This document shows, piece after piece, positions 1,183 to 40,925 of a stretch of 44,733 nucleotides of DNA. Under the pieces are notes generated by a model. That model saw nothing but the letters and a program-made list of their open reading frames with translations. It made no database searches and was not told the origin of the DNA. A program made the translations under genes and the position numbers. This stretch comes from Candidatus Promineifilaceae bacterium (lineage in GTDB: Bacteria > Chloroflexota > Anaerolineae > Promineifilales > Promineifilaceae): the NCBI GenBank assembly GCA_046259695.1, contig JBJYWX010000209.1:1-44733 (forward strand), given 5' to 3'. Each line of letters opens with the position of its first letter. Positions within the stretch are counted from its first letter, which is position 1.

Positions 1183-3315
1183 TCAGTTGGCAATCGTGAT
1201 CGGGGCCAAAAGCAGTCGGTCAGCGACTGCCTGGCCTTCTTCCTCCACCGCCAGGCGTTCTCCCGTCGGCTGGTTATAAACGCCAATCTCCAACTGGTAC
1301 TCGCCCGGCTTCAGATCGCGCGGCAGTGCCAGCGGCATGTAGCTTAGCAGGCGTTCCCCTCCCGCTTCGCGCCAGAAACTGGTAGGGTATTCGTTGGCGT
1401 CAAAGCCGGCGACTACCTTCCCATCCATATCTAGCAGATGGGCGAAGATCGTGTATTGGCGCGGCGGTCTCTGCAGCAGCTCCCAATAAAGAATAAGTTC
1501 CAGGGTGTCTCCCGGCTCCAAGGTGGAGGCATTCCGGTCATGCCCTAAGAAGCGCATGATCGTCTCAAAATTGACGGGTAGGGCAATGGGATTGCTTGTC
1601 TCCTGCAGCGTCTCCTGGTCAAAAGTTGTCGCCCATGACCAGGTGGCGGGCGTTCTGTCTCGTGGTTCGGGATAAACGGCAGGGGACCAATGCATTACCT
1701 CGGCTACCGGCCGGTCAAACCGGTCGTACACTGTCTCCACAGCTGCCAGTCCCGTGCCAAGTTCCATCAAAGCTGGCTGGGGCACATTCTCCGCTAGCAG
1801 CACGTATGTCGCCTCTTCCCCAGGTGGCGGCAACGGTAAACTCTGGCGGGCATCAAACCAGTGGATTCCATCGTATGTTTCGGGCGCCAGGAGGGCAAGC
1901 GTTGGATGCTGCATATACTGCGTCGAAAGATAGATAGCGCCGCTGGGAGGGTGACGGCGCAAATAGTCGGCGACGTAAACCATGGCGACGCGCCGGTCAT
2001 CATCGTTACGCGGCGACAGATGCCAGCGCTGGAAGTAAGCACTGGCCGTCTGTACGGTCAGCCAGACAAAGAGTATCAGCACCACAGCCGAAGCAATTTT
2101 CGAGACAGACTGCCCACCCAGGCGCCTTGCCTGGCGCAGCGCCTCATCCAGGGTCAAGGCAGGGAAGAAGTAGACAACGGGCAAAACGCCGATGGCCCGC
2201 TGGTAATAGGGCAGCGATTCGGCCGACAATACCATGGGCAGAAGCATGATTAGCAGCCACAGGGGCGCCGCCAGGTAAGCAACCCGCGATAGGTCCCTAC
2301 CCTTGTAAGCACGCCACAGAGCCAGAGGGATGCCCGCATAGAACAGCGCCCCGACGAGCCGGTTAAAAACGGGCTGCCCGGCTATGTTAAAGCGGTAATT
2401 GATATCGCCCCATACCGTCCACATACGTGCTGTTTCCAGCATGCTCTGACGCAGGCGGCCAAAAGCATCCCCGCCGGACCACTCAGGCGAGAAGACGGAA
2501 ATCTGTGCGGCACGGCCGAAGAAATCTTGGGGATGCAGCCAGAAATGGCGGCCTAGGGGCAGAAACACCAACAGGGCCACGCCGCCCATGGCGGCAAGCG
2601 GCATCCAGTGAGCCGCTACTGCCCGCCGATCAAAGAGCAGTGCAAGCACCAGTATGGACAGGATAAAAAAGGGGAAAAGGCGTACTGCCGTGTAGGTATA
2701 AGGGGAAAGGCCAAGAAAAAATCCCGCCGCCAGGAACGGCCACCAGGCAGGCCATCCGCTGCCGGCCCGCTGCCGCAAACCATAGAAAAGAAAGAGAACC
2801 ACAAAGAGCTGGACAAACGGCTGGATCACGGCACGATAGCCATTGCGGCTGGCGATCAGGTGCCACAGCGAGACGGTGAGAAGAGCGGCGGTCAGCAAGC
2901 CGATCCGGCGCGTGAACAAGGTCCGCACCGTCGTATACGTGAGGGCCACGGTCAAGATACCGATATAAGCCGATAACAACCGCCCGGTAAAGATGTTTTC
3001 CCCTTGCAGCGCAAAAAGGAAGGCTTCCAAATAGACAAAGAGCGCCTCGCGACCAGTGAAAGCGGAGAAGAAGACCGGGTGGTACTTTCCGGCAAGCACA
3101 TCGCGCGCCAGCAGTGCCTTGGTAGCCTCATCCGGGTGCCAACCAAATGGAATCGAGGCCAGGCAATAGAGACGCAAGAATGCCGCTAGCAGCAGAACGG
3201 TTAGCGGTGCGGCTGTGGTCAAAGTGAGCTGCCTAAGACTGCGCATGAGACCATATAGCGTAGTGCGAATCAAAGAATTGGCAAGCGAATGAGCGGCGGC
3301 CGGTCCGCCGCTCAC
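1183..3315 (-). CDS. GT-C fold membrane glycosyltransferase (ArnT/PMT_2, GT39-like) with C-terminal soluble beta-rich domain
   Basis: 710 aa with many predicted TM helices. The N-terminal loop motif GWHPDEATKALLARDV (DE motif) is typical of ArnT/PMT-like enzymes. The C-terminal ~110 aa (GDTLELILYWELL...YTIFAHLLD...LPRDLKPGEYQLEIGVY) is paralogous to the C-terminus of the 32273..34669 protein. Confidence 0.7.
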   Translation of the reverse strand: MSGGPAAAHSLANSLIRTTLYGLMRSLRQLTLTTAAPLTVLLLAAFLRLYCLASIPFGWHPDEATKALLARDVLAGKYHPVFFSAFTGREALFVYLEAFLFALQGENIFTGRLLSAYIGILTVALTYTTVRTLFTRRIGLLTAALLTVSLWHLIASRNGYRAVIQPFVQLFVVLFLFYGLRQRAGSGWPAWWPFLAAGFFLGLSPYTYTAVRLFPFFILSILVLALLFDRRAVAAHWMPLAAMGGVALLVFLPLGRHFWLHPQDFFGRAAQISVFSPEWSGGDAFGRLRQSMLETARMWTVWGDINYRFNIAGQPVFNRLVGALFYAGIPLALWRAYKGRDLSRVAYLAAPLWLLIMLLPMVLSAESLPYYQRAIGVLPVVYFFPALTLDEALRQARRLGGQSVSKIASAVVLILFVWLTVQTASAYFQRWHLSPRNDDDRRVAMVYVADYLRRHPPSGAIYLSTQYMQHPTLALLAPETYDGIHWFDARQSLPLPPPGEEATYVLLAENVPQPALMELGTGLAAVETVYDRFDRPVAEVMHWSPAVYPEPRDRTPATWSWATTFDQETLQETSNPIALPVNFETIMRFLGHDRNASTLEPGDTLELILYWELLQRPPRQYTIFAHLLDMDGKVVAGFDANEYPTSFWREAGGERLLSYMPLALPRDLKPGEYQLEIGVYNQPTGERLAVEEEGQAVADRLLLAPITIAN

Positions 3316-3373: not shown

Positions 3374-3389
3374 TAAGTCATTTGACGTA
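3374..3389. promoter_or_regulatory. 16-bp 7-2-7 inverted repeat TAAGTCA-TT-TGACGTA (copy A1), putative NarL-family response-regulator operator
   Basis: Near-perfect palindrome (6 of 7 positions complementary between halves). It lies 32 bp upstream of copy A2 and about 150 nt upstream of the receiver gene start. Same heptamer family as copies B and C. Confidence 0.45.
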
Positions 3390-3405
3390 GCAGCGTGGGA
3401 TCAGA

Positions 3406-3446
3406 GCACGCATTTGTCGTAGCACGGACCCATCATACGGCCGATG
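3406..3446. promoter_or_regulatory. Bipartite motif copy A2: GCACGCA-TT-TGTCGTA (only the right half-site is good) plus box 2 ATCATACGGCCGATG
   Basis: The right heptamer with flanks, CATTTGTCGTAGCA, matches copies A1, B and C. Box 2 (3432..3446) begins 10 nt after the heptamer, against 11 nt in copies B and C. Box 2 overlaps an 8-bp perfect inverted repeat, TACGGCCG-ATGG-CGGCCGTA (3436..3455). Confidence 0.4.
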
Positions 3447-3529
3447 GCGGCCGTACATTCACTTGGTATGCTAGATACAATTGGGCCAATGGCTAACGTG
3501 AAACGAGGCGGCGCGGACGCGCGCCGTCA

Positions 3530-3964
3530 TTGTGGAGGAATACCCCCTTGGACAGACGCATCCAAATCCTTATTGTCGACGACAGCACTACAGTGCGGCA
3601 GGGCTTGCTGGCCTTGATCGACACCGCGCCTGACATGACTGTTGTCGGCCAGGCCACGGATGCATCAACTGCCATAGAACTCACGCGTCGGACCCAGCCC
3701 GATGTCATCATTTTTGACCCTAGCGCCCCCCTGGAGCAAAACATAAATACGATTGCCGCCTTGCGTCAGGCAAGCGGATTAACACGCATTCTGATCCTCA
3801 CTGACGACGGTGATGAGCAGCCCGTCCGCGCTGCGCTGCAAGCCGGCGTTCAAGGATACTTGCTGAAGGATGCAGTGCTGACTGATGTCTTAACTGCGAT
3901 CCGCCGCGCGTTTGAAGGCCAGATCGTGCTTCACCCCAGCTTGTCACCGGGCTACATCATATGA
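3530..3964 (+). CDS. Stand-alone response-regulator receiver domain (NarL-type receiver, no output domain)
   Basis: ILIVDDSTTVRQGL (acidic pocket DD), PDVIIFD (phospho-acceptor Asp), ILILTD (Thr) and YLLKD (Lys) are all present. It aligns along its whole length with the receiver half of the 7615..8271 RR and stops just after the shared LHP motif, so there is no HTH. The TTG start from the ORF track is uncertain. Confidence 0.8.
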   Translation: MWRNTPLDRRIQILIVDDSTTVRQGLLALIDTAPDMTVVGQATDASTAIELTRRTQPDVIIFDPSAPLEQNINTIAALRQASGLTRILILTDDGDEQPVRAALQAGVQGYLLKDAVLTDVLTAIRRAFEGQIVLHPSLSPGYII

Positions 3965-3994
3965 CGTAGCCACACCTCTATCATTGCGCCGATG
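3953..3994. promoter_or_regulatory. Bipartite motif copy B: TACATCA-TA-TGACGTA (3953..3968) plus box 2 ATCATTGCGCCGATG (3980..3994)
   Basis: The palindrome halves are 6/7 complementary. The stop codon of the receiver gene (TGA 3962..3964) lies inside the palindrome. The motif sits about 160 nt upstream of the first LysW-like gene. Confidence 0.45.
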
Positions 3995-4128
3995 CATGTT
4001 AGCGATCGTTGTTTTACGATAGGCATAATGACCATGTCGCATAAGCGACTAATTATGCGCACCTTTCACGCGGCGGGGATGCAGGTGAACATTCCCCATG
4101 CGACGCAAATAACAGTCAGGAGATAACA

Positions 4129-4419
4129 ATGTCCTTACGTACTAAACGAGAAATTACCGCCACCTGTCCCGGATGTGGTAACGAAATATACTTTCATGAA
4201 ATGCCTCGACTCGGCCAATTTGTCACCTGCCCGGAGTGCGGTGATATGACTGAAGTCATCAGCCTCGATCCGGTCGCTCTTGACTGGTCTTCTGATTGGG
4301 AAGACGAAGAGTGGGAAGATGACTGGGAATACGAGGGCGGCTCCTACGATGAAGAAGATGAACTTGAAGATTTTGACAATGACGAGTATGACGACGAGTC
4401 GGATAATGATGATTATTAG
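4129..4419 (+). CDS. LysW-fold zinc-ribbon mini-protein with 45-aa hyper-acidic, Trp/Tyr-rich tail (paralog 1)
   Basis: SD AGGAGA (4118..4123) lies 5 nt before the ATG. CPGC...(17 aa)...CPEC is followed by MTEVISLDPVALDW, which resembles the LysW/ArgW amino-group carrier zinc ribbon. The tail (residues 52-96) has 27 D/E, no K/R, 4 W, 4 Y and 1 F, and ends in Tyr rather than the carrier EDWGE-Glu. Confidence 0.75.
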   Translation: MSLRTKREITATCPGCGNEIYFHEMPRLGQFVTCPECGDMTEVISLDPVALDWSSDWEDEEWEDDWEYEGGSYDEEDELEDFDNDEYDDESDNDDY

Positions 4420-4565
4420 TTGAGGGCATCGGCTTTGGGCGCAGCACGGCGGCCGGACCATTGGCAGACAGTAAAAGACGCCGGCGAGCTCCTTACAAGG
4501 GTTAACTTGCAGTTGTTTTAAATGGCATGTCCTAAGGCAGACGTAATCCAGGAAAGGAGAATTTG

Positions 4566-4793
4566 ATGAATCAACAAGGCGAACAGGCCATCGTGGCCAA
4601 ATGCGTTGCCTGCCGTTCCCGCATTTTCTTCAAGGCACGACCAGAGTTAGGGGACTACGTAACATGCCCTGAATGTAAGGCGCAGCTTGAGGTTGTGGCG
4701 CTGTCCCCTCTGCGTCTGGATTGGCTCTTTGAAGAAGACAGCCAGTCTACCTGGCGCCAGCCGGCACACAATCCAATAGATGTCGAACGATAA
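4566..4793 (+). CDS. LysW-fold zinc-ribbon mini-protein (paralog 2, short non-acidic tail)
   Basis: SD AAGGAG (4554..4559) lies 6 nt before ATG 4566; the ORF track starts at TTG 4563. CVAC...(17 aa)...CPEC is followed by QLEVVALSPLRLDW. The tail LFEEDSQSTWRQPAHNPIDVER ends in Arg. Confidence 0.7.
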   Translation: MNQQGEQAIVAKCVACRSRIFFKARPELGDYVTCPECKAQLEVVALSPLRLDWLFEEDSQSTWRQPAHNPIDVER

Positions 4794-4844
4794 GCCTCAA
4801 ACGGAGGGCACCGACCTTACCAACCGGCCTGAAGCGAAGCCAAG

Positions 4845-4873
4845 AACCCCATTCTTCCTGAGTGGGGTTTTTT
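4845..4873 (+). terminator. Rho-independent terminator after the LysW-like gene pair
   Basis: Stem AACCCCA (4845..4851) pairs with TGGGGTT (4863..4869) around an 11-nt loop. A run of six T (4868..4873) spans the end of the 3' arm and the following tail. Confidence 0.65.
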
Positions 4874-4876
4874 ATA

Positions 4877-4905
4877 TTGACTTCTTTTTGGCTGGACATC
4901 ATAAG
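4877..4905 (+). promoter_or_regulatory. Candidate sigma70-type promoter TTGACT-17-CATAAG
   Basis: The -35 TTGACT (4877..4882) has 5/6 matches, the spacer is 17 nt, and the -10 CATAAG (4900..4905) has 4/6. It would give a leader of about 205 nt before the 5118 start. Position-based guess only. Confidence 0.35.
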
Positions 4906-5117
4906 CTGATTTGTAAGAAACTCGTACTATCTTATGGTTAAGATGCAGCCAATGGGTCGGCATATTGTGCCAGAGGTCGACCGGCTGCTGGGATGGGATA
5001 GGAGCATAGAAGCGTACAACGAAGCCACTAGTGAGCTAAGGTATTCGATAGCAGTTAGAATTCCGGCGCCTTGGCGCCAGAATCTGGTTAAGAGCAGCTT
5101 AGTAGGAGATAAAGAAG

Positions 5118-6275
5118 ATGCACCGACGAATGGGGATGCTTCTTGTTTTTCTGGCAGTGTTGCTCCTTTCCCCGCTTGTGGCGCAGGCTAGCGCCGCTCT
5201 GTTCCAGAGCGGCCCTGCGCTCGAATATTTGGGTGAAGGGGGCAGTTATACGATAGCAGACGGGCGGCACTTTATTGTAAAACAGACTGGGCCGTTTCGA
5301 TTCATTAACGTGCCCGGGCCGACTTACACTGCTACCGGCGATGAACGGGTTTGGGCAGCTACGCTGAACGCGCCATCGCCTTTAGTACGAACATGGGTCA
5401 GCTACGGCAGTGTGCCAAAGGGCTGTGAAATCTCTTACATGGCGATCGACGATGATCCAGATGATCGGATCAATGTATTTTATATTGACGATGACCCGGT
5501 TCATGATATGCCGCAAGGCTTCGTAACCGGCGGGTCATTTGTTTCGCCATCTGCGGGCAACCTGCGCCTCCAGGCGGTGGACAGCATCGGCATCTGGCTC
5601 GACAAATGTGAGGGCGAATCTACCATCACGCCGACAACCCCACCAGTGGACACCATTACGGCGACACCAACCGCAACGGCCACCACAGATGTCACTGTAT
5701 CTCCGACGGCCACAACCCCTGTTACGGTTTCGCCAACGGCTACAGATCAAGGTCCGAGCACGGCGATAGCGCCGACTCCGGAGCAGGAAACGGCAACGCC
5801 TACGGCGACCGCCACGAAGAAACCACGACTTCCAGCCTGCTTGCGCATAAATTTTGAAGTGAGCGGTGACCTGGCAAAAGAAGGCGTGTTTGAGGTGCGT
5901 GAAACAGGTGGCAGGCTGCTTTACAGCTGGTACGCGGAAGAGGGCTGGTACGACAGCGGCTGGATCAGAGACATTGACATCTCATTCGAATCGGTCTTCA
6001 TCGAGGTTTTCTACGTGCCGGCCGACGGCCCGCGCGTGCGTATGGAGATCTTTAATCCTGCCCCCGGCACGTCATATGGCTGGTTAGGTCGCGGCATGTG
6101 CCATGCACTGGAAGTGGGCTGGCCCGATGAAACCATTACGCCTACGCCCACACCGGACGCGCAAGATGGCTTTAACGACGAGTTCGATTTGGAGCAACTA
6201 GATCTGCTGCGCTTTATCTGGCCCGGCATCCAGCCAACCGCCACGAGCACACCGGCCAGTTCGCTGCGAGGCTAA
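5118..6275 (+). CDS. Secreted two-domain protein of unknown function with Thr/Pro-rich linker
   Basis: SD GGAGA upstream of the ATG. Signal peptide MHRRMGMLLVFLAVLLLSPLVAQASA. Linker TPTTPPVDTITATPTATATTDVTVSPTATTPVTVSPTAT...ATPTATATKKP. I recognise no family in the flanking ~170-aa and ~150-aa domains. Confidence 0.6.
   Translation: MHRRMGMLLVFLAVLLLSPLVAQASAALFQSGPALEYLGEGGSYTIADGRHFIVKQTGPFRFINVPGPTYTATGDERVWAATLNAPSPLVRTWVSYGSVPKGCEISYMAIDDDPDDRINVFYIDDDPVHDMPQGFVTGGSFVSPSAGNLRLQAVDSIGIWLDKCEGESTITPTTPPVDTITATPTATATTDVTVSPTATTPVTVSPTATDQGPSTAIAPTPEQETATPTATATKKPRLPACLRINFEVSGDLAKEGVFEVRETGGRLLYSWYAEEGWYDSGWIRDIDISFESVFIEVFYVPADGPRVRMEIFNPAPGTSYGWLGRGMCHALEVGWPDETITPTPTPDAQDGFNDEFDLEQLDLLRFIWPGIQPTATSTPASSLRG
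5691..5750 (+). repeat. 2 x 30-nt in-frame tandem duplication inside the Thr/Pro linker
   Basis: gtcactgtatctccgacggccacaacccct followed by gttacggtttcgccaacggctacagatcaa, encoding VTVSPTATTP / VTVSPTATDQ. Within the shared VTVSPTAT codons the differences are synonymous third-position changes. Confidence 0.6.
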
Positions 6276-6332
6276 GCCGCCTGGTCGCCGCCGCGACCGG
6301 CAGCTTATTCACGTTTAGAATTGGAATTTACG

Positions 6333-6358
6333 AAGGGGCGCTTTGCGCCCCTTTTTTG
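6333..6358 (+). terminator. Rho-independent terminator after the secreted-protein gene
   Basis: Perfect stem GGGGCGC (6335..6341) / GCGCCCC (6345..6351), TTT loop, followed by TTTTTT (6352..6357). Confidence 0.75.
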
Positions 6359-6384
6359 TTACCATATTTCGCCTGCCGTATTCA
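6356..6384 (+). promoter_or_regulatory. Candidate promoter TTGTTA-17-TATTCA for the kinase/regulator operon
   Basis: The -35 is at 6356..6361 and the -10 at 6379..6384 with an exact 17-nt spacer. This leaves a very short leader with no obvious SD before ATG 6402. Low confidence. Confidence 0.3.
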
Positions 6385-6401
6385 TACGCTAAAATAACGA
6401 T

Positions 6402-7622
6402 ATGGTACCGGCATCAATGGGCACCGATCCAGCGCCTGACGAAAGAACACTGGCGCTGCTAGAGCAGCAGGCGGCCGACCGCACGCGCAAGCTAAGCGCG
6501 CTATATGACATTTTGGAAGCTGCCAGCGCACCCAGCGATCTGCAGACCACTATCACACGCTCGCTGCATCGCGTATTGAAAGCAGTTAAGAGCGACGCGG
6601 GAGCCATCCACTTGCTGGATAAACGGGGCGAGACGCTGCGACTGGCGGCGCAGCAAGGACTGCCTGAGAAGACCTCAGCTTTGCTGGAAAAAATCGACGT
6701 GCGCGAAAACACGCTGGCCGGCTGGGTCGTGCGCCACAATGAGCTGCTGCTCATTCCCGATATGCGCACCGACGACCGCGCGGCGAGTATTGCCGCCTTA
6801 AGCGATCATGCTGTCCTGTTGGCCGTTCCTATTGTCGCCAATGAGCAGGTGCGCGGCGTGTTGACTGTATTGGGCGACGATTTAGGCCATTATACAGCGC
6901 AGGAAGAGATGGACCTGGTCACTTCCGTGGGTGAGCAGCTCGGCGTTGTCGTAGAAAACGCGCGCCTGCGGCAGCAAATGGAAGAACTGGTAGTCATGGA
7001 GGAGAGAAACCGCCTAGCACGGGAGCTGCATGATTCCGTAACACAGTCACTTTACAGCGTGACCCTGTTTGCAGAAGCTGGTATCAATCTGAACGAGGCG
7101 GGCGAATACGAACGCGCAGGCCAGCTTTTTCCGGATATCCTGGAAACCGGTCGGCAGGCGCTTAAGGAAATGCGCCTGCTGGTCCACAAGCTGCGGCCGT
7201 CTGCTCTTGAAAAGGAAGGCTTCGCGAAGGCCATTCAGCACCGGCTGAATGCTGTTGAAGGGCGTGCAGGCATTAAGCACCAGCTTATCGTGCATGGTGA
7301 TCTAGACATGAGCCAGGAAATAGAAGAAACGATCTTTCATGTCACACAGGAAGCACTTAACAACGCCATTAAACACGCTAATGCAGACACGGTACGCGTC
7401 GAGCTGCGCCAGGATCGGTATGGCCTTACGCTCATCGTCGCCGACAATGGCCTGGGATTCGATCTACAAGCGGCGGCCGAGGGCAGCGGTCTCGGCCTGG
7501 TGAGCATGCGCGAGCGCGTTGAGGAGCTAGGCGGGTCCATTGCCTATGAATCGGCACCCGGCCAAGGCGCGCTGATTCGAGTCCAGCTGCCGGCGGGCGC
7601 GACCGGAGCGACCGATGAGTGA
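6402..7622 (+). CDS. Soluble GAF-domain sensor histidine kinase (HisKA_3 + HATPase_c, NarX/LiaS/DegS class)
   Basis: No TM segments. GAF-like N-terminal region (...GAIHLLDKRGETLRLAAQQG...VPIVANEQVRGVLTV). H-box EERNRLARELHDSVTQSLYS. N-box QEALNNAIKHANA and G-box DNGLGF...GLGLVSMRERV. Confidence 0.85.
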   Translation: MVPASMGTDPAPDERTLALLEQQAADRTRKLSALYDILEAASAPSDLQTTITRSLHRVLKAVKSDAGAIHLLDKRGETLRLAAQQGLPEKTSALLEKIDVRENTLAGWVVRHNELLLIPDMRTDDRAASIAALSDHAVLLAVPIVANEQVRGVLTVLGDDLGHYTAQEEMDLVTSVGEQLGVVVENARLRQQMEELVVMEERNRLARELHDSVTQSLYSVTLFAEAGINLNEAGEYERAGQLFPDILETGRQALKEMRLLVHKLRPSALEKEGFAKAIQHRLNAVEGRAGIKHQLIVHGDLDMSQEIEETIFHVTQEALNNAIKHANADTVRVELRQDRYGLTLIVADNGLGFDLQAAAEGSGLGLVSMRERVEELGGSIAYESAPGQGALIRVQLPAGATGATDE

Positions 7623-8271
7623 AAAGATACGTATTTTCCTCGCTGACGATCACACCGTGGTGCGCAAGGGACTGGAAACCCTCATCAGCACACAAAGTGA
7701 TATGCAGGTCGTAGGCACGGCCGTGGACGGCGTGGAAGCGGTGGACCGGATCTTACATCTGCAACCTGACGTTATCTTGCTCGACATACAGATGCCCCGC
7801 AAAAACGGCGTGGAGGCAATCAGCGAAATTAGAGCCCAATTACCTGATGCCCATATCCTGGTCCTAACCAGCTTCAGCGAAGATGATACTGTTTTTGCGG
7901 CGATAAAAGCGGGGGCATTGGGCTACTTGCTCAAGGACTCCTCATCGGGCGAGTTGATCCAGGCCATCCGCAATGTCCATCAGGGGCGCTCCTCGCTCCA
8001 TCCCGACGTGGCGCTCAAGGTTATCCACGAACTGAATAAACCGGCGCCAGAACTGCCTCTTACAGAAGAACCTCTCACTGAGCGTGAAGTTGAAGTGGTA
8101 CGCCTGGTAGCGCGCGGTTTCTCCAACCAGGCGATAGCCGAACAACTCGTGGTCAGCGAACGCACGGTACGCACCCACATCAGCAACATTCTCAGCAAAC
8201 TGCATTTGGCCAATCGCACCCAGGCCGCTCTCTACGCGCTTCGGCAAGGCCTTGCCAGCCTGGATGACTGA
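7615..8271 (+). CDS. NarL/FixJ-family response regulator (receiver + LuxR-type HTH)
   Basis: The start overlaps the kinase stop by 8 nt (ATGAGTGA). Receiver motifs LADDH, ILLDIQMP, LVLTS and YLLKD. HTH LTEREVEVVRLVARGFSNQAIAEQLVVSERTVRTHISNILSKL. Confidence 0.9.
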   Translation: MSEKIRIFLADDHTVVRKGLETLISTQSDMQVVGTAVDGVEAVDRILHLQPDVILLDIQMPRKNGVEAISEIRAQLPDAHILVLTSFSEDDTVFAAIKAGALGYLLKDSSSGELIQAIRNVHQGRSSLHPDVALKVIHELNKPAPELPLTEEPLTEREVEVVRLVARGFSNQAIAEQLVVSERTVRTHISNILSKLHLANRTQAALYALRQGLASLDD

Positions 8272-8289
8272 GCCCCACTGAGCTTAATT

Positions 8290-8331
8290 TACGTCATTTG
8301 TCGTAATGAGTTTCCCAACATTTCGCCGATG
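8290..8331. promoter_or_regulatory. Bipartite motif copy C: TACGTCA-TT-TGTCGTA (8290..8305) plus box 2 AACATTTCGCCGATG (8317..8331)
   Basis: The palindrome halves are 6/7 complementary. Box 2 starts 11 nt after the palindrome, as in copy B. The motif lies directly after the RR gene and about 110 nt upstream of the third LysW-like gene. Confidence 0.45.
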
Positions 8332-8413
8332 TGCCGCCAAATTGCAGTGACTATGATTGGTGTAACGTTTTGTTGTCTCTATACGATCTTGTTTGTTTGA
8401 GGAGATGGCCGTC

Positions 8414-8623
8414 ATGGCAAAGTCAATATCAAAAGTATTGATTGCCGAGTGTCCTGAGTGCGAGTCCCACATTCGCTTCCATCGGAGCCTGCGTCTAGGT
8501 GAGATTGTAACTTGCCCGGAGTGCAGTGAACGTTTGGAAGTGAGCCAGTTGAATCCGCTGGAACTTGACTGGGCGTTCGACGATTATGATGAAAATGACG
8601 ACAATTACGATTCGTGGAATTGA
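8414..8623 (+). CDS. LysW-fold zinc-ribbon mini-protein with acidic tail (paralog 3)
   Basis: The ORF track starts at TTG 8393. SD GAGGAG (8399..8404) abuts ATG 8405 and is 9 nt before ATG 8414, so 8414 is the better-spaced start (8405 remains possible). CPEC...(17 aa)...CPEC is followed by RLEVSQLNPLELDW. The tail AFDDYDENDDNYDSWN ends in Asn. Confidence 0.7.
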   Translation: MAKSISKVLIAECPECESHIRFHRSLRLGEIVTCPECSERLEVSQLNPLELDWAFDDYDENDDNYDSWN

Positions 8624-8663
8624 TTCATAATCCCCCCAGTAAAGTAGGCTAGATTCACTGGAG

Positions 8664-8695
8664 AGGGCCATCGCATTCGTGAGGTGGCCTTTTTT
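8664..8695 (+). terminator. Rho-independent terminator after LysW-like paralog 3
   Basis: 9-bp stem (8664..8672 with 8683..8691, two G-U pairs), 10-nt loop, then a T-run continuing to 8695. Confidence 0.55.
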
Positions 8696-8960
8696 GGTTA
8701 TTAATCGCATTTTGCGGCACGATTTCCTCATTCATGTAAGCAGGCAGGCTCGAACCATTTGGCCCCTCCTCCACCGGCCGTTGCACCTGCTTCTATCCTA
8801 GTATTTTCATCCCCAGAGCTTAGCAAACCGACAGCTTAGCATGCCGACCAGGCGCCCTACGCCCGGTACCGTGCCTAATTCAATTGCCACCCCGTGCCGG
8901 GAACCAATGCCGGGCACGAAGCGTCTTAAGAAGCACATATCCAAAATAGGAGAGATTATC

Positions 8961-9698
8961 ATGAACAAGAAACTTGCCGTAATCGCAATGGGCTTGTTAG
9001 CTATGGCCGGAATGCTGGTCGGCTGCGCCACGCCGGTCGAGGCCAACGCCGCCAATGCTCAGGAACCGCCCAATGGTGACAAGAGTATCACCGTCATTGG
9101 CCAGGGTGAGGCTCTTGGCCAGCCGGACCGCGCCCAGGTCACATTAGGCGTTGAGATCTTCGCCCCAACCGTTGGTGAAGCGACAGCGCAGAATGAAGAG
9201 ACAATTCAGGCCATTATGGCCGCGCTGGTTGAAATGGGTGTGGCCCGCACGGACGTCCAGACGGCAAATTACGGCCTCTGGGCAGAACAGAAATATGGTG
9301 ATCAGGGTCCGGAAGGGATTGCTGGCTATCACGTCACGAATCAGCTAAACACAACCATCCGTGACGTAGATCAGTTGGGCCCTGTTCTGGAAGCTGTCAT
9401 TGAAGCCGGGGCCAATAGTATCCAGGGCGTCTCTTTCAGTGTATCCGATCCGGCCCGGCTGGAAGCCGAGGCTCGTGCCGCGGCCATGGCGGACGCACGG
9501 GCACGGGCCGAGTCATTGGCCGAATTGGCCGGCGTTGAACTGGGCGAAATCCGGATCATCAACGAGGTCATGAGCCAGCCGGGTTACCCACTCCAGGGAA
9601 TGGGTGGCGTCGCCTTTGACCAGGCATCTGAACCCAGTTTCTCGCCCGGCCAACTGCGCCATCAGATGCAGGTGCAGGTAACCTTCGCCATCAATTAA
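8961..9698 (+). CDS. SIMPL/DUF541-family lipoprotein (YggE-like)
   Basis: SD AGGAGAG (8948..8954) precedes ATG 8961; the 8841 extension in the ORF track has no support. Lipobox MNKKLAVIAMGLLAMAGMLVGC. Body ITVIGQGEA...PDRAQVTLGVE...ANYGLW...GYHVTNQL...ANSIQGVSFSV...ARAAAMADARARAESLA is typical of SIMPL domain proteins. Confidence 0.75.
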   Translation: MNKKLAVIAMGLLAMAGMLVGCATPVEANAANAQEPPNGDKSITVIGQGEALGQPDRAQVTLGVEIFAPTVGEATAQNEETIQAIMAALVEMGVARTDVQTANYGLWAEQKYGDQGPEGIAGYHVTNQLNTTIRDVDQLGPVLEAVIEAGANSIQGVSFSVSDPARLEAEARAAAMADARARAESLAELAGVELGEIRIINEVMSQPGYPLQGMGGVAFDQASEPSFSPGQLRHQMQVQVTFAIN

Positions 9699-9722
9699 AA
9701 GACTCACTCAGACACAATCCGA

Positions 9723-9767
9723 GGAGCTCCTTTTGGCCGTTTGCGAAAGAGGAGTTCCTTGGTGTTT
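9723..9767 (+). terminator. Possible terminator after the SIMPL gene
   Basis: GGAGCTCCTTTT (9723..9734) pairs with AAAGAGGAGTTCC (9746..9758): 12 bp with one bulge and one G-U. It is followed by TTGGTGTTT. Confidence 0.4.
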
Positions 9768-9816
9768 GGAACCCGGCAAAAGAAAGAATCCAGGCATAAG
9801 CCTTATCTTCTTGCGC

Positions 9817-9845
9817 TTGTAACCGCCAACAGGACAAGCTATACT
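9817..9845 (+). promoter_or_regulatory. Candidate sigma70-type promoter TTGTAA-17-TATACT
   Basis: The -35 is at 9817..9822 (4/6), the spacer is exactly 17 nt, and the -10 is at 9840..9845 (5/6). This implies a ~110-nt leader containing two hairpins (GGCGC-TCCCCT-GCGCC and CTTTGC-TGCTT-GCAAAG). No SD is visible before ATG 9961. Confidence 0.45.
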
Positions 9846-9960
9846 GCCCGTCGAGCACACATTTAGATTAAAAGGCGCTCCCCTGCGCCCAATGAATGGT
9901 TCTACATGCTCCAAGGGGGTTTCCACTTTGCTGCTTGCAAAGCGGACACGCAACTGAATC

Positions 9961-11142
9961 ATGACCACGCCGCCCCAACCTGTGGAACAGAACCCGGGCC
10001 GGGAAAGTAAGGCACCAACTCAACCACCCGCTGCGGAACCGGCAGCAAGCGTGCCGGGTATTTCGCAGGACGATCTGGCGTCGCGCCCCAAAGCTGTATG
10101 GCAGCGAATCGCCTGGGCGAAGATCGCCCTGTTCCTTTTCAGCTTGCTGCTCTTTATCCTGGCCTTGATGCTGATGAAAGAGGGCGCCAAAGGCCTGGCG
10201 CCATACCTCGACGGTCGAGGGATAATAGGCAATGCGGCCAACAGCCTTGGCTTTGGCTGGCTCTTCGCTTACGCGGTGATGAGCGGATCGCCGGTAGCCG
10301 CCTCAGCGTTAACATTCCTGGACGCCGGAATCCTTAACCAGGCGCAGGCCTTCACCATGATAAGCGGGAGCCGTTTGGGCTCAAGCCTCATCGTGTTGAT
10401 CATTGGCTTTCTATATGTCTTGCGCGGCCGGGACCGCGCGACCAGCCTTGGCGCCGGGCTGCTCTCATTCACTGTCACCGGTACGCTGCATATGGGTGTC
10501 CTGCTGTTCGGCCTGGTCGTTTTGCGCAATCCGCGGCTGCAGATCGTTCCCTCTGGTGAGGGCATGCTCCTTAACGGTCTGACCGGCGCTTTCCTGGACC
10601 CGATCGTCGCCCTTGCGGCGGCACGGCTTCCTCCTTGGGCCCTGTTTCTAGCCGGCCTGCTGATCATACTTGGCAGCTTTAGCCTGTTCGATCGCTGTTT
10701 GCCGCAGATGACCCTGCAGGAAAGCCAATTCAGCCGGGTGGCGCGCCTCGTATACAAACCGATGGTCATGTTTCTTCTGGGCTGCGCCATCACGTTGCTC
10801 TCCATGTCGGTCAGCGTTTCGCTGACGCTGCTGGTGCCTTTGAGCCAGCGTGGTTTTGTACGCCGCGAGAATTTCGTCCCATACATCATGGGCGCCAACG
10901 TTACCACCTTTATCGATACGCTCTTCGCGGCGTTCATGTTGAGTAACCCGGCAGCGGTTACTGTGGTGGTCACACAGATGATCGGCGTCAGCTTGACCTC
11001 GGCCGTGATCCTGCTATTCTTTTTCCGCGGTTATGAACGCCTCCTGCTGGTCTTCTCGGCGTGGGTAACAGCTTCAAACCGGCACATTATCTACTTTATG
11101 GTCATTATAATTACCGTTCCAATCTTACTGGTACTGCTATGA
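9961..11142 (+). CDS. Polytopic membrane protein, divergent Na+/Pi-cotransporter (NptA, PF02690-like) family
   Basis: There are two internal repeats. Each has a Ser-rich helix followed by a G-x-N/R-hGT/SS-like motif: MSGSPVAASALTFLDAGILNQAQAFTMISGSRLGSS and LSMSVSVSLTLLVPLSQRGF...YIMGANVTTFIDT. This resembles the QSSSA...GANIGTT repeats of Na/Pi cotransporter-like proteins. The similarity is judged by eye only. Confidence 0.4.
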   Translation: MTTPPQPVEQNPGRESKAPTQPPAAEPAASVPGISQDDLASRPKAVWQRIAWAKIALFLFSLLLFILALMLMKEGAKGLAPYLDGRGIIGNAANSLGFGWLFAYAVMSGSPVAASALTFLDAGILNQAQAFTMISGSRLGSSLIVLIIGFLYVLRGRDRATSLGAGLLSFTVTGTLHMGVLLFGLVVLRNPRLQIVPSGEGMLLNGLTGAFLDPIVALAAARLPPWALFLAGLLIILGSFSLFDRCLPQMTLQESQFSRVARLVYKPMVMFLLGCAITLLSMSVSVSLTLLVPLSQRGFVRRENFVPYIMGANVTTFIDTLFAAFMLSNPAAVTVVVTQMIGVSLTSAVILLFFFRGYERLLLVFSAWVTASNRHIIYFMVIIITVPILLVLL

Positions 11143-11969
11143 AACCGTTGAATATACTGGTCTCTACCGGCGGCGGACTACATTCGGATCAGGCCCTCCT
11201 GGCGGCGGTAAATTTGGCGCGCAGCCTAGACGGCACAATCACCGTGTTGACTGTGGTCGAGAACGAGTCGGAGCGATCCGCAGGTCTTGCCATTGTGGAG
11301 CAGGCGGCAGCACTGCTGGAAGAGACCGGCTTTTCAGCATCGGCGAAGGTAGTTGTGGGACCAAGAGTAGCAAGCATCGTCCGCGAAGCGGACAGTGGCC
11401 AGTATGATATGCTCGTTATCGGCCAGCGCCCTGGCCATGGACTCCTGACGCGCATCCTCGGTCCCTTAACGCTGCAAGTGGTCGAACAGGTCCACCTGCC
11501 GGTATTCATCACCAATGCGCCGTTCACCTCGCTTCGGCACCTGCTGCTGTGTGACAGTGGCGGCAGCCAGGTCCCTTTGTTGGACCGGCTTTTCGCACAG
11601 TTACCACAGCTCGTTGAGGCGGCTCATCACATGACAGTACTGCACGTCATGTCGCAGATGTCGGCTGCACCAGGGATCAACGGGCAGGATCTACGGGCCA
11701 CGGCCGAAGAACTGATGGCCCACCACGCGCGTGAGGGAGAACTGCTGGAACAAGATTTACAGAAGCTGGCTCAAATGCACGTACAGCCGCAGCCGTTGGT
11801 ACGGCATGGGCTGGTGGTGGATGAAATTGTAGATGAAGCAAAACAGGGCGCCTATGACCTGGTGATCATCGGCGCCCATGAACAGGGCAAATGGCCACGT
11901 TTTCTACTAGATGACCTGGCCGGCCAGATTATTCAGCAGATCGAGCGTTCCGTCCTCGTAATCCGCTAG
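11139..11969 (+). CDS. Tandem universal stress protein (2 x UspA domain)
   Basis: ATG 11139 overlaps the upstream stop (ATGA), indicating translational coupling; the 11061 extension in the ORF track is unsupported. MKPLNILVSTGGG...YDMLVIGQRPG...PVFI, then LLLCDSGG...YDLVIIGAHEQ...SVLVIR. Two Usp-like alpha/beta units. Confidence 0.7.
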   Translation: MKPLNILVSTGGGLHSDQALLAAVNLARSLDGTITVLTVVENESERSAGLAIVEQAAALLEETGFSASAKVVVGPRVASIVREADSGQYDMLVIGQRPGHGLLTRILGPLTLQVVEQVHLPVFITNAPFTSLRHLLLCDSGGSQVPLLDRLFAQLPQLVEAAHHMTVLHVMSQMSAAPGINGQDLRATAEELMAHHAREGELLEQDLQKLAQMHVQPQPLVRHGLVVDEIVDEAKQGAYDLVIIGAHEQGKWPRFLLDDLAGQIIQQIERSVLVIR

Positions 11970-11982
11970 CAAAGAGACCGCC

Positions 11983-29126: not shown

Positions 29127-29302
29127 TTGAGTCGCGCTAGTATCCTCGCCGTGCTTGATTATCGCCCCCTCTCTTAATTATTACATTACGATCCCTTTCG
29201 CTTTTCCTACGACGAACCGTCGAACAATGCATCATCAGCGCGGCCGTATTGCAATTATCCCCAATGAAAGTATGCTTCCTGCATCAGTACGGACAGCAGC
29301 GC

Positions 29303-30061
29303 ATGAAAGATAGGACCGTTTCGCCGCCTGAAACAAAGATCCTTGGCGTGCCCGTTCATGGCGTGACTATGGACCAGACAGTGGCGTTGGTCAGGGACTT
29401 CTATATGGCACGGCCAGGCTGCAACCAGATCGCGACCGTAAATCCGGAGTTCGTCATGGCTGCGCAGCGGGATGAAGCGTTTATGACGGTGCTGCGGCAG
29501 GCTGACCTGTGCCTGCCGGATGGCATCGGTCTCGTCTATGCCGCGCGGCGATTGGCAAATCCTTTACCACAACGCGTTCCGGGCTCAGAACTCGTCTATA
29601 GATTGGCCGAAGAAGCAGCCGCACAAGGTTGGACGTTATTCTTGCTGGGAGCGGCCCCTGGCGTGGCGGAAGAAGCCGGCGCTGTTTTACAAGCGCGGTA
29701 TCCCGGCTTGATACTTGCCGGCGCTTATGCCGGTTCGCCGCAGATGGAAGAGAACGAGCAAATTCTCAGCCTGATCAACGCCAGCGAGGCCAGTATGCTC
29801 TTTGTAGCGTATGGCGCGCCGGGGCAGGACAAGTGGATCGCACGCAACAGGGACCGTTTCACGACCGTACGGCTGGCGATGGGTGTTGGCGGCTCGCTCG
29901 ATTTCATTACAGGCAGAGCGGAACGAGCGCCGCTCTGGGTGCAAAACCTCGGCCTGGAGTGGCTGCACCGTTTAATCAAAGAACCGTGGCGCTGGCGGCG
30001 AATGCTGGCCCTGCCCCAATTTGCAGCGCGAGTCCTGATCAGCCCGGCGGATAATTCTTAA
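29303..30061 (+). CDS. WecB/TagA/CpsF-family glycosyltransferase (GT26)
   Basis: ILGVPVHGVTMDQ, NPEFVMAAQRD, LCLPDGIGLVYAAR, FLLGAAPGVAEEA, APGQDKWI, GVGGSLDFITG..RAP.W and GLEWLHRL..EPWRW. ATG 29303 is preferred over the ORF-track TTG 29249. Confidence 0.8.
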   Translation: MKDRTVSPPETKILGVPVHGVTMDQTVALVRDFYMARPGCNQIATVNPEFVMAAQRDEAFMTVLRQADLCLPDGIGLVYAARRLANPLPQRVPGSELVYRLAEEAAAQGWTLFLLGAAPGVAEEAGAVLQARYPGLILAGAYAGSPQMEENEQILSLINASEASMLFVAYGAPGQDKWIARNRDRFTTVRLAMGVGGSLDFITGRAERAPLWVQNLGLEWLHRLIKEPWRWRRMLALPQFAARVLISPADNS

Positions 30062-30181
30062 GCCGTTTTCTGCGGGCAGGCGCCTATTTTATAATGGTAA
30101 ATTTGCCGCCGGCATAGCTGGCGGACGCGCAGTGTGTCGAAAATGGAGCGGACCGACGTTCGCTCCAGTGGAGAAAGAAGC

Positions 30182-31132: not shown

Positions 31133-31141
31133 TTTCTTGAG

Positions 31142-32266: not shown

Positions 32267-32272
32267 CACGCG

Positions 32273-39881: not shown

Positions 39882-39909
39882 GAAGTTGTAAGGCGGGTAA
39901 TAGAAATAA

Positions 39910-39937
39910 TATAACGGCCCGTTGGCGAGCCGTTATA
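39910..39937 (-). terminator. Hairpin/terminator between ctaE and ctaG
   Basis: Perfect 9-bp stem TATAACGGC / GCCGTTATA with a 10-nt loop. On the minus-strand RNA it is followed by UUAUUUCUAUU. Confidence 0.45.
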
Positions 39938-40039
39938 CTGTCCCTACTTATCTTAGCTCCCAGAAAACAGCGTGGTCAAGAGAGTCTTATGATCAAAGCA
40001 CGCCCGGCCAATCCGCTGTTAGATTTAGCTTGGCCTCTG

Positions 40040-40890: not shown

Positions 40891-40925
40891 TACTTGCTTC
40901 TCCTTTCTGCGGGCACATGCCGCGC

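Follow-up and report, generated by a model that had tools for sequence, protein, structure and literature searches.

Amino-group carrier proteins of the LysW/ArgW type (TIGR01206, Pfam PF21344), found in Thermus, Sulfolobus and Thermococcus, are the closest described relatives of the proteins analysed here. In Streptomyces secondary metabolism, amino-group carrier proteins occur with LysX/Z/Y-type enzymes and keep the C-terminal Glu. ATP-grasp enzymes that act on acidic protein tails are also known, such as RimK on ribosomal protein S6 and the tubulin tyrosine ligase (TTL) family on tubulin. Small-protein modulators of two-component systems exist as well, as do pseudo-receiver regulators under the control of a protein, AmiR with its controller AmiC being one. 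Regulators of the NarL type recognize 7-2-7 operators, with TACYYMT as the E. coli half-site. A literature search found no description of LysW-like proteins in a signalling system of the type presented below.

LysW homologs with non-canonical tails

The window, that is, the whole 44.7-kb stretch of DNA analysed, contains three ORFs on the forward strand, at 4129..4419 (protein A, 96 aa), 4566..4793 (protein B, 75 aa) and 8414..8623 (protein C, 69 aa), each with an AGGAG-type ribosome binding site 6–9 nt upstream of its ATG. The original prediction described them as paralogs of LysW type, and the searches agree. All three contain the pattern CxxC-17 aa-CPEC, followed by (L/T)EV..L.P(L/V).LDW, and all three exceed the gathering score (27) of the Pfam family Zn_ribbon_LysW (PF21344), with 43.5, 40.5 and 53.4 bits for A, B and C, respectively (E-values of 2e-10 to 2e-14). 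Their scores against the lysW equivalog model TIGR01206, in contrast, were 43.1, 34.4 and 36.0, all below its cutoff of 53.2. A profile of the family matched the LysW proteins of T. thermophilus (E = 9.8e-14) and T. kodakarensis (E = 9e-10), and the Thermus LysW sequence given in the original prediction was consistent with PDB entry 3wwl when aligned. When an AlphaFold model of C was compared with the PDB using Foldseek, the best six matches were all LysW chains, led by 5eio_C (TM 0.88, rmsd 0.8 Å). By homology and fold, A, B and C descend from LysW and have diverged from this amino-group carrier.

The LysW-like proteins share with LysW/ArgW the zinc-ribbon globular domain, the length class and an acidic C-terminal extension after a D-P-L-x-L motif. 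Their tails, however, can be extended to more than 60 residues and do not end in EDWGE or Glu, a difference that holds for A, B and C. Translation gave the C-terminal residues Tyr, Arg and Asn, as had been claimed. After the zinc ribbon and the LDW motif, A continues for 43 aa, of which 26 are Asp/Glu and eight aromatic (net charge, -30); C has a 16-aa acidic tail ending in ...DSWN. The tail of B is short and almost neutral (net charge, -2).

The family comprises 733 clusters at E ≤ 1e-10, and all its named members belong to Chloroflexota. It is large and unstudied, and databases wrongly label its members as lysine-biosynthesis genes. Several paralogs per genome, double and triple ribbon forms, and a conserved motif, P-x-E-L-D-W-A-(F/Y)-(D/E), whose LDW-A-(F/Y)-(D/E) part is specific to the family, set it further apart from LysW/ArgW. 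The four Cys are invariant; the tails vary, although they are usually strongly acidic and aromatic-rich (median tail charge, -16). Such invariant Cys residues and extreme charges would be expected of stress-induced polyanions or metal-binding proteins acting with no specific protein partner, whose tail or Cys4 site would buffer polyamines, beta-lysine-type amines, Zn or other metals. Sporadic cation-related neighbours would suit such a role (LysE exporters, Spermine_synth, a polyamine-type ABC transporter at locus L005 and a cation-chloride cotransporter at L139), but they are few and come mostly from one lineage, and bulk charge alone would not demand conservation nearly as strict as that of the ribbon and the LDW(A)(F/Y) motif. 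Besides the nearly neutral tail of B, many double-ribbon relatives have basic tails, so that the term 'polyanionic adaptor' does not cover the whole family. A purely ionic or metal-binding function is thus very improbable.

The two-component genes and predicted promoters of the locus

The genes neighbouring A, B and C proved in domain searches to be those originally described. At 3530..3964, the forward strand encodes a receiver-only response regulator, its receiver being of the NarL-family type (Response_reg, 64.7 bits). The NarL profile covers only its positions 6–135, with no output domain, and no GerE remnant was found downstream of the gene; the canonical Asp/Thr/Lys residues are kept, and the protein is 38% identical to the receiver of the NarL-type regulator described below. 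Its true start is likely to be the TTG at 3548, which lies 3′ of a GGAGG. The product of the ORF at 5118..6275 (forward strand) carries a signal peptide and, at aa 181–216, a linker rich in Thr and Pro; it matched no Pfam or NCBIfam family, and homology searches found no homolog of it at any related locus. A strong intrinsic-terminator-like hairpin (6332..6354, forward strand; 10 pairs, seven of them G-C, then a T run) separates these upstream genes from an operon for a histidine kinase and a NarL-type regulator. The kinase (6402..7622, forward strand) is soluble, with GAF, HisKA_3 and HATPase_c domains and no transmembrane segment; most of its orthologs (46–71% identity) have an extra PAS domain. 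The NarL/GerE-type response regulator (7615..8271, forward strand), whose gene overlaps that of the kinase by 8 nt, has a canonical receiver and is 61% identical to its ortholog at locus L052.

The original prediction also pointed to an upstream DNA motif shared by these transcription units. Indeed, the inverted repeat TACGTCANNTGACGTA occurs three times in the window with at most one mismatch (at 3374, 3953 and 8290), against 0.01 occurrences expected. Box 1 (TAAGTCATTTGACGTA, 3374..3389), which has one mismatch to TACGTCANNTGACGTA, lies 5′ of the receiver-only regulator gene and is followed by a half-site, TGTCGTA, read from the sequence at 3415–3421. Box 2 (TACATCATATGACGTA, 3953..3968), identified in a palindrome search, overlaps the stop codon of that gene and is located 161 nt upstream of A. 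Box 3 (TACGTCATTTGTCGTA, 8290..8305) lies 19 nt past the stop codon of the NarL-type regulator gene, and a perfect copy of it occupies the equivalent place at locus L001.

Downstream of boxes 2 and 3, on the forward strand, are predicted promoter cores for A (3982..4020) and C (8319..8357). The former, an exact match, consists of CATTGCGCCGATG (3982–3994), a 20-nt spacer and TACGAT (4015–4020); the latter, detected as a match to the composite pattern, consists of CATTTCGCCGATG (8319–8331), 20 nt and TATGAT (8352–8357). The composite promoter ahead of A and C can thus be written as a TACGTCA-N2-TGACGTA palindrome, 13 nt, CATTNCGCCGATG, 20 nt and a -10 hexamer. A promoter-like element of the same element-20 nt-hexamer geometry (CATACGGCCGATG with two mismatches, 20 nt, TATGCT; 3434..3472, forward strand) precedes the receiver-only regulator gene. 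B has no box of its own and is therefore probably co-transcribed with A.

In the 1.2 Mb of DNA fetched, the composite promoter was found eight times (twice in the window, and at loci L001–L005 and L007), against no copies in 10 shuffles, a count that is descriptive because the pattern was derived from the very sequences then counted. All eight copies are located 5′ of a LysW-like gene adjoining an orthologous kinase/NarL pair. Five other species have the same promoter ahead of LysW-like genes beside this pair, and its 13-nt and 20-nt spacings are invariant between species. With two inverted 7-nt half-sites set 2 nt apart, 5′ of genes that adjoin that of a NarL-family regulator, the boxes have what we take to be the 7-2-7 geometry of NarL sites. 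Their half-site, TACGTCA, differs from that of E. coli. This geometry and the position of the boxes suggest that they are binding sites for the NarL-type regulator. Since A and C lie behind a promoter that is conserved beside orthologous two-component genes, they look like direct outputs of the GAF-kinase/NarL system.

Linkage to response regulators

The linkage between LysW-like and signalling genes is conserved far past close relatives, in line with the association originally noted, and was seen from the LysW-like, the regulator and the kinase sides. Searches starting from the LysW-like gene led to kinase/NarL-linked loci L001–L005, L007 and L052, and five of six kinase orthologs at 46–68% identity had LysW-like genes within 3 kb. 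Orthologs of A (65% core identity) occur at L004 and L007, likewise 5′ of the kinase gene; those of C lie 3′ of the NarL gene at L001–L003 and L139, and one ortholog of C, P0003, is 87–93% identical to it.

Across the family, the LysW-like genes are most often partnered not by the kinase/NarL pair but by an OmpR-type regulator whose receiver is a pseudo-receiver. The original prediction missed this, as it did the Ddl-like ligase described below. This regulator is encoded directly 5′ of the LysW-like gene at 24 of 52 genome loci. The regulator-based search found the reverse association at 63 of 68 informative metagenome loci, where a LysW-like ORF lay directly 3′ of the OmpR-type regulator homolog. 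In all 23 aligned genome copies of the regulator, neither the phospho-acceptor Asp nor the conserved Lys is present, so that these regulators would need another input. The LysW-like proteins could supply it, acting as partner-switch modulators ('connectors') whose ribbon or acidic tail binds the regulator of the adjoining 5′ gene, at its receiver or at its DNA-binding domain; in the window they would exert feedback on the NarL-type and receiver-only regulators. AmiC-AmiR is a precedent for such control of regulators without a phospho-acceptor, and small proteins whose genes accompany a two-component system and are induced by it are a further parallel, induction being predicted here. A connector role would also account for the LysW-like gene following a regulator gene of whatever output type (pseudo-receiver OmpR, NarL or receiver-only). 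Nevertheless, plain control of the downstream gene by the regulator would explain the adjacency just as well, and the promoter boxes of the window point to exactly such control. Moreover, no fusion proteins or other signs of interaction were found, about 40% of the genome loci have no regulator nearby, and the LysW-like proteins are not homologous to these modulators. We regard this role as unlikely.

ATP-grasp ligase and lysine 2,3-aminomutase at related loci

No LysX, LysZ, LysY, LysJ or LysK gene was found among the scanned ORFs of the window, as originally claimed, or among the neighbours at 52 related genome loci; unlike those of LysW/ArgW, the LysW-like genes adjoin response regulators. 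The prediction of a non-carrier role drawn from this absence and from the tails is not established, since an ATP-grasp ligase adjoins the LysW-like gene at about 25–45% of related loci (14 of 52 genome and 31 of 80 metagenome loci), as happens with LysW itself. This setting partly resembles one that the original prediction had named as counting against it. This ligase is D-Ala-D-Ala-ligase-like (Ddl), not LysX/RimK-like, and can be almost contiguous with the LysW-like gene (gaps of 20 nt at L143/L144 and 1 nt at L009). Lysine 2,3-aminomutase (KamA) is present at 11 of 52 genome and 22 of 80 metagenome loci and is genuine, matching 2a5h (E = 3.6e-153) with Asp293 and Asp330 kept. At over half of the loci of the family, neither gene lies nearby.

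This linkage may indicate a carrier or acceptor role. The LysW-like proteins might be true amino-group carriers of a non-canonical pathway, the Ddl-like enzyme attaching lysine or beta-lysine to a tail carboxylate for chemistry on the tethered substrate, and the copies of the window relying on enzymes whose genes lie in other parts of the genome. Their LysW ancestry and the EDWGE-like ends (-SWE or -EWE) of P0003 and the ATP-grasp-adjacent copies of L143/L144 agree with this. On the other hand, the three proteins of the window end otherwise, and C-termini across the family (D, Y, E, F, G, W and others) conserve no acceptor residue, even beside ATP-grasp genes. LysZ/Y/J/K-type tailoring enzymes do not recur in the neighbourhoods, and the conserved Asp293 and Asp330 suggest that the substrate of the aminomutase is free lysine, its epsilon-amino group unattached. 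The Streptomyces carriers offer a parallel for a LysW homolog used with an ATP-grasp ligase outside lysine/arginine biosynthesis, but here the ligase is Ddl-like, the tails are unconserved and the aminomutase is the sole recurrent co-enzyme. Carriage of an amino group is accordingly a distinctly doubtful function. With this type of ligase and with unconserved C-termini, the chemistry is not that of the canonical carriers, but the LysW-like proteins may serve as acceptor or scaffold.

The explanation we favour, with about an even chance of being right, is that A, B and C are output genes of the two-component system whose products provide a LysW-type handle with an acidic tail for docking, the favoured partner being the Ddl-like ligase. 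Once phosphorylated, the NarL-type regulator would occupy the 7-2-7 repeats, whose centres lie some 65 nt 5′ of the predicted transcription starts. From there it would switch on three promoters with a weak '-35', those ahead of the receiver-only regulator gene, A (with B) and C. The LysW-like proteins would keep the physical role of LysW, as a small zinc-ribbon handle with a flexible polyanionic tail able to dock on basic surfaces of partner proteins. Family gene context best supports the Ddl-like ATP-grasp enzyme as that partner, in many cases alongside lysine 2,3-aminomutase. For this ligase the tail might be a scaffold or an acceptor; in this organism the ligase may be encoded elsewhere or be absent. 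RimK-S6 and TTL-tubulin would be analogous for the ATP-grasp-linked loci only, as pairings of an ATP-grasp enzyme with a polyacidic-tail protein, although their substrates are unrelated in sequence to the LysW-like proteins, whose putative modifying ligase is of the Ddl class.

Scanning of the window ORFs (Pfam on the ten ORFs of 270–378 aa; KamA and ATP-grasp probes on all ORFs) likewise revealed nothing resembling KamA or Ddl. This lack of an ATP-grasp or aminomutase gene was counted against the explanation just given, as were the many family loci without these genes, the type of ligase, the unconserved C-termini and the non-acidic tail variants. The ligase and the orthologous kinase/NarL pair occur together at L007, L052, L143 and L144, and L007 has extra boxes facing the divergent ATP-grasp gene.

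LysW-derived proteins without the functional hallmarks of LysW

Three genes on the + strand of the window, here named A (4129–4419), B (4566–4793) and C (8414–8623), code for small proteins of 96, 75 and 69 aa, respectively, each preceded by an AGGAG-type ribosome-binding site located 6–9 nt upstream of the ATG. The three proteins share the pattern CxxC-17 aa-CPEC followed by (L/T)EV..L.P(L/V).LDW, with identities of 36–42% both among themselves and with Thermus LysW. The Pfam model PF21344 (Zn_ribbon_LysW; gathering score 27) recognized all of them (43.5 bits for A, 40.5 for B and 53.4 for C). A profile derived from 116 members of the family, when compared with all PDB sequences, matched LysW from Thermus thermophilus (3wwl; E = 9.8e-14) and from Thermococcus kodakarensis (E = 9e-10). 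An AlphaFold2 model of C (mean pLDDT 75.7) contained five short strands and a low-confidence tail; in a Foldseek search of the PDB its six best matches were all LysW chains, the best being 5eio_C (TM 0.88, rmsd 0.8 Å over 44 residues). The agreement of these three approaches indicates that A, B and C have a LysW fold and are homologous to LysW, in line with the original prediction of three LysW-fold paralogs. Chance reading frames were rejected in view of the Pfam E-values (1e-10 to 1e-14), the orthologs found in other species and the ribosome-binding sites. The FYDLN_acid family (PF09538), which also combines a zinc ribbon with an acidic tail, was rejected as well, its match to A (E = 0.016) falling short of the cutoff.

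The LysW equivalog model TIGR01206, which the original prediction had proposed as a check, scored the three proteins at 43.1 (A), 34.4 (B) and 36.0 bits (C), all below its cutoff of 53.2, and NF041070 gave at most 29.3 against a cutoff of 75. The EDWGE-type tail of LysW, whose terminal Glu bears the substrate on its gamma-carboxyl, was absent from A, B and C; a WGE terminus was present in only one of the 266 family proteins retrieved. The C-termini are Tyr, Arg and Asn, as had been claimed, and the tails are unlike those of LysW. Protein A has a tail of 43 residues, 26 of them Asp or Glu and eight aromatic, with a net charge of -30 (ending in NDDY); the tail of B is short and almost neutral (last residues DVER), and that of C is acidic and 16 residues long (last residues DSWN). 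LysW/ArgW is the closest family, alike in domain and physical design, but it differs in tail, enzymes and gene context, and A, B and C should therefore not be filed as LysW. With equivalog cutoff, tail and gene context all failing, a canonical LysW identity was rejected: A, B and C derive from LysW but show none of its functional hallmarks.

In 116 family sequences the four Cys, Pro48, Leu51, Asp52 and Trp53 were invariant. The tails had a median of 26.5 residues, 69% of them Asp or Glu, and the C-terminal residue was scattered (D, Y, E, F, G, W and others). Tails of such composition, attached to a zinc ribbon, might be taken to serve merely as a non-specific polyanion or in a metal-related role; this is very unlikely, and the tail of B carries almost no net charge.

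Gene neighbourhood of A, B and C

The neighbours of the three genes are those originally described: a receiver-only regulator (3530–3964), a protein with a signal peptide (5118–6275), a soluble histidine kinase with GAF, HisKA_3 and HATPase domains (6402–7622) and a NarL/GerE-type regulator (7615–8271). Both regulators have the canonical Asp/Thr/Lys residues. The HisKA_3 and HATPase_c domains of the kinase, together with the receiver and GerE domains and the Asp/Thr/Lys set of the regulator, place the pair in the NarL/HisKA_3 class of two-component systems. A strong terminator-like hairpin (6332–6354) separates the kinase/regulator operon from the genes upstream. The possibility that the receiver-only gene is a decayed NarL-type gene was rejected, as tblastn found no GerE remnant in 3900–4135; likewise, a receiver-only gene in the related locus L052 is not its ortholog, since BLASTP gave no alignment.

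The original prediction also stated that no enzyme of the LysW pathway is encoded nearby. A Pfam scan of ten size-matched ORFs of the window found no LysX, LysZ, LysY, LysJ or LysK; these ORFs code for transporters, glycosyltransferases, a class I/II aminotransferase, a sugar kinase and parts of a cytochrome oxidase. A census of 113 other neighbours in related loci (L001, L004–L055) agreed with this, the RimK, AA_kinase, Semialdhyde_dh and M20 set not recurring among them. No homolog of lysine 2,3-aminomutase (KamA) or of a D-Ala-D-Ala-ligase-like (Ddl-like) ATP-grasp enzyme was present among the window's ORFs.

The signal-peptide protein has no Pfam or NCBIfam match and contains a Thr/Pro-rich linker (aa 181–216); its gene includes imperfect 30-nt DNA repeats at 5676–5735. 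It lies between B and the kinase gene only in the window, the LysW-like genes of related loci being followed directly by the kinase gene. Most kinase orthologs (P0269–P0301) are about 520–535 aa long and have an N-terminal PAS_3 domain, while the window kinase (401–406 aa) and a minority of the orthologs lack it. Elsewhere in the window there are two PMT_2-type glycosyltransferase genes (1183–3315), a sugar-modifying/glycosyltransferase cluster (29249–34669) and cytochrome c oxidase subunit and assembly genes (38943–44221), with no apparent relation to the LysW-like genes.

A composite promoter with an inverted-repeat operator

The palindrome TACGTCA-N2-TGACGTA, with one mismatch at most, occurs three times in the window (at 3374, 3953 and 8290), while 0.01 occurrences would be expected; the shared upstream motif proposed to link the transcription units is therefore real. 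All three boxes are intergenic and lie upstream of the genes for the receiver-only regulator, A and C. The box at 3953, which precedes A, overlaps the preceding stop codon, and that at 8290, which precedes C, starts 19 nt past the NarL stop codon. The element CATTNCGCCGATG follows the box after exactly 13 nt at both A (3982) and C (8319), with an exact match in both cases, and is in turn followed, exactly 20 nt later, by a -10-like hexamer (TACGAT for A, TATGAT for C). The promoter of the receiver-only regulator is looser; it includes the full box at 3374, a half-site at 3415–3421, an element with two mismatches at 3434 and, after 20 nt, TATGCT.

The same composite promoter was found upstream of LysW-like genes in related loci L001–L003 (orthologs of C) and L004, L005 and L007 (orthologs of A in L004 and L007). 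The composite pattern occurred eight times in the 1.2 Mb of DNA retrieved, always upstream of such genes, and was absent from ten shuffles; since the pattern was built from sequences later counted, the figure of eight is descriptive, and the weight of the promoter evidence is carried by the spacings, which are invariant across species. At least A and C therefore have a dedicated promoter with an inverted-repeat operator conserved across species. Operators of the NarL family have the inverted 7-2-7 arrangement seen in these boxes. This geometry, the position of the boxes and their conservation across species suggest that they are bound by the NarL-type regulator encoded at 7615–8271. The GAF kinase would respond to a cytoplasmic signal by phosphorylating this regulator, which would then activate the promoters of the receiver-only regulator, of A (together with B) and of C. 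Riboswitches or leader RNAs between regulator and LysW-like genes were searched for with Rfam, and neither the window nor any of five loci gave a match.

At locus L005 (2178–6880) a copy of the box, TACGACAAATGACGTA, lies upstream of a SET-domain gene, and genes for a polyamine-type ABC transporter (a solute-binding protein, then a TOBE-domain ATPase) follow, just upstream of the LysW-like genes; the regulon may extend to this stretch. At L007, extra palindromic boxes face a divergently transcribed ligase gene.

Conservation of the link to the two-component genes

The original prediction tied the LysW-like genes to the two-component genes, and this linkage is conserved in related loci whether the search starts from the LysW-like genes or from the kinase. 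The close relatives L001–L003 keep the order NarL-type regulator, C-type gene. Three GTDB species representatives (L004, L005 and L007) have an A-type gene, a second LysW-like gene and an orthologous kinase (E-values of 1e-88 to 2e-93), followed by an orthologous NarL-type regulator in L004 (4e-81) and L007 (2e-82); the L005 contig stops at the kinase. A NarL ortholog with 61% identity lies beside a LysW-like gene at L052. Starting from six kinase orthologs (L139–L144; 46–68% identity), LysW-like genes were found within 3 kb of five; none was found within that distance of the L140 ortholog. The order at L139 is kinase, NarL, LysW-like gene, while L143 and L144 show kinase, NarL, LysW-like gene, Ddl-like ATP-grasp gene and a second LysW-like gene. 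At L141 and L142 LysW-like genes lie on either flank, and one of these follows a receiver-only regulator, an arrangement that echoes the layout of the window. A gene for a GreA/GreB-family elongation factor was repeatedly observed downstream of a LysW-like gene in these two-component loci (L141: 2569–3473; L142: 2985–3757; L001: 1856–2664).

A pseudo-receiver OmpR-type regulator as the commonest partner

In 24 of 52 genome loci, the gene directly upstream of the LysW-like gene, on the same strand and 100–260 nt away, codes for an OmpR-type regulator of about 230 aa (Trans_reg_C). None of the 23 regulators that were aligned has the phospho-acceptor Asp, in whose place S, A, V or I is found; the conserved Lys has likewise given way to R, M or L, and the acidic pocket is missing. 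The Pfam receiver model scored them below threshold. The OmpR-type partners are pseudo-receiver regulators. In a reverse test, metagenomes were scanned with the alignment of OmpR-type regulators: a LysW-like ORF was present within 700 nt downstream, on the same strand, in 63 of 68 informative loci, and in a 64th the longest LysW-like reading frame extends back into the regulator gene. Pseudo-receiver regulator and LysW-like protein thus form a very tight two-gene module.

The LysW-like proteins might act as partner switches on the neighbouring regulators. Such a role has its appeal, given that phosphorylation is not an option for the commonest partner, and there are regulators controlled by small proteins or protein partners, as in AmiC-AmiR; we consider it rather doubtful.

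Words of the form TTT(A/G)(T/C)ACA are enriched between the regulator and LysW-like genes (a single hexamer was present in up to 29 of 73 regions, against 13 at most in shuffles), often with two to five copies per region. They could be direct-repeat operators of the OmpR type or mere -35-like hexamers, from which they are indistinguishable. A gene of the LysE type (lysine/arginine exporter family) lies directly upstream of the regulator/LysW-like pair at L034, L036 and L040–L042, and a LysE homolog within 3 kb at seven metagenome loci (L059–L063, L102 and L138), mostly of one lineage; together with the aminomutase described below, LysE is another lysine-related neighbour of LysW-like genes.

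Ddl-like ligase and lysine 2,3-aminomutase

Next to the LysW-like gene, 14 of 52 genome loci and 31 of 80 metagenome loci encode a Ddl-like ATP-grasp enzyme, which matches Dala_Dala_lig_C and aligns with E. coli DdlB (E = 5.6e-38). For a lysine 2,3-aminomutase the corresponding counts are 11 of 52 and 22 of 80; this enzyme matches 2a5h (E = 3.6e-153) and retains both lysine-binding Asp residues. The order of the ligase and aminomutase genes differs from locus to locus, and the gap to the LysW-like gene is 20 nt in L143 and L144 and 1 nt in L009, where the genes are contiguous. The ligase also accompanies the orthologous two-component system, at L007, L052, L143 and L144. Absent from the window, the ATP-grasp ligase accompanying the small protein is of the Ddl class where relatives have it. 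No further Pfam family occurred in more than four loci among the 113 neighbours of the census. A small peptide with an ATP-grasp enzyme and a radical SAM protein could also be read as a RiPP precursor system, which is unlikely: the radical SAM protein is a genuine aminomutase and the 'peptide' a folded zinc domain.

The original prediction assigned the LysW fold a non-carrier role in signalling. Redeployment of the fold in a signalling context is supported and extended by these data; however, to exclude carrier chemistry is not safe, because relatives so often adjoin an ATP-grasp ligase. That the proteins are true, non-canonical carriers is unlikely.

Across the family, the LysW-like genes are thus linked to response regulators with three different types of output; a sizeable minority of loci add a Ddl-like ligase, accompanied or not by lysine 2,3-aminomutase. 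The preferred reading, to which we give about an even chance, combines both: the LysW-like genes would be outputs of the two-component system, the zinc ribbon would serve as a handle, and the tail, acidic and rich in aromatic residues, would provide for docking or as an acceptor, in the way LysW works with its own enzymes, with a Ddl-like ligase, not encoded on the window's 44.7-kb contig, as the best-supported class of partner. The regulatory half of this combined reading is much better supported than the biochemical half. RimK-S6 and the tubulin ligases, in which ATP-grasp enzymes act on acidic protein tails, are with AmiC-AmiR the nearest functional analogies, none of them homologous to the LysW-like system.

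On a further, more speculative reading, Anaerolineae and Caldilineae would have an undescribed, regulator-governed protein-modification module. The Ddl-like ligase would place lysine, or the beta-lysine produced by the adjacent aminomutase, on side-chain carboxylates of the genetically encoded polyacidic tail, and the protein, whether modified or not, would go on to act on the regulator encoded beside it, be it of the pseudo-receiver OmpR type or of the NarL type. This full sequence of steps is improbable as it stands; if true, it would amount to a templated aminoacylation, comparable to that of cyanophycin or tubulin, by which the charge of the tail is reversed, and the window would be the version wired to a GAF kinase.

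In the literature searched, no description was found of LysW-like proteins linked to response regulators, of an aminomutase and Ddl-like ligase with a LysW-like protein, or of a two-gene module of a pseudo-receiver OmpR-type regulator and a LysW-like protein. A LysW-type scaffold in a regulator-governed setting appears not to have been described before. The two-gene module, with its recurrent extension by aminomutase and ligase, offers a concrete handle on the control of phosphorylation-independent response regulators and on a second evolutionary use of the LysW scaffold. The system merits experimental follow-up, and the window lends itself well to it, with a single kinase/regulator pair, three small products and three promoters that are predicted targets and have a defined operator.

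Distribution and annotation of the family

The 52 genome loci, from a collection of species-representative genomes, are all Chloroflexota MAGs (Anaerolineae, Ardenticatenaceae, Promineifilaceae and Caldilineaceae), although the LDW motif formed part of the search patterns and the scan is therefore biased toward the LDW subfamily. A word-indexed profile search retrieved 742 proteins, and when 1.84 billion cluster representatives were searched exhaustively with an HMM, 2979 matched at E ≤ 0.001 and 733 still did so at E ≤ 1e-10. Every named organism with a family member belongs to the Chloroflexota, including Litorilinea aerophila, a cultured relative; as far as seen, the family is confined to this phylum. 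Members are named 'lysine biosynthesis protein LysW', 'alpha-aminoadipate carrier protein LysW' or 'hypothetical' in their sources. Hundreds of Chloroflexota proteins thus carry pipeline labels for lysine biosynthesis or an alpha-aminoadipate carrier while lacking the defining features of LysW, and an aminoadipate lysine pathway inferred for Anaerolineae from such genes in metabolic reconstructions would be wrong.

Several LysW-like paralogs per genome are common. The metagenome contig L056 has four LysW-like genes within 6 kb (6001–12082), adjoining a 109-aa protein that consists of the OmpR-type DNA-binding domain alone (Trans_reg_C, without a receiver). Double and triple ribbon forms also exist (retrieved proteins P0005, P0006, P0014 and P0121–P0135), many with Lys/Arg-rich linkers and basic tails. 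At L004 (10303–10785) and L007 (4484–4990), the gene for such a multi-ribbon protein comes immediately after that for the acidic A-type protein, an arrangement suggestive of an acidic/basic pair.
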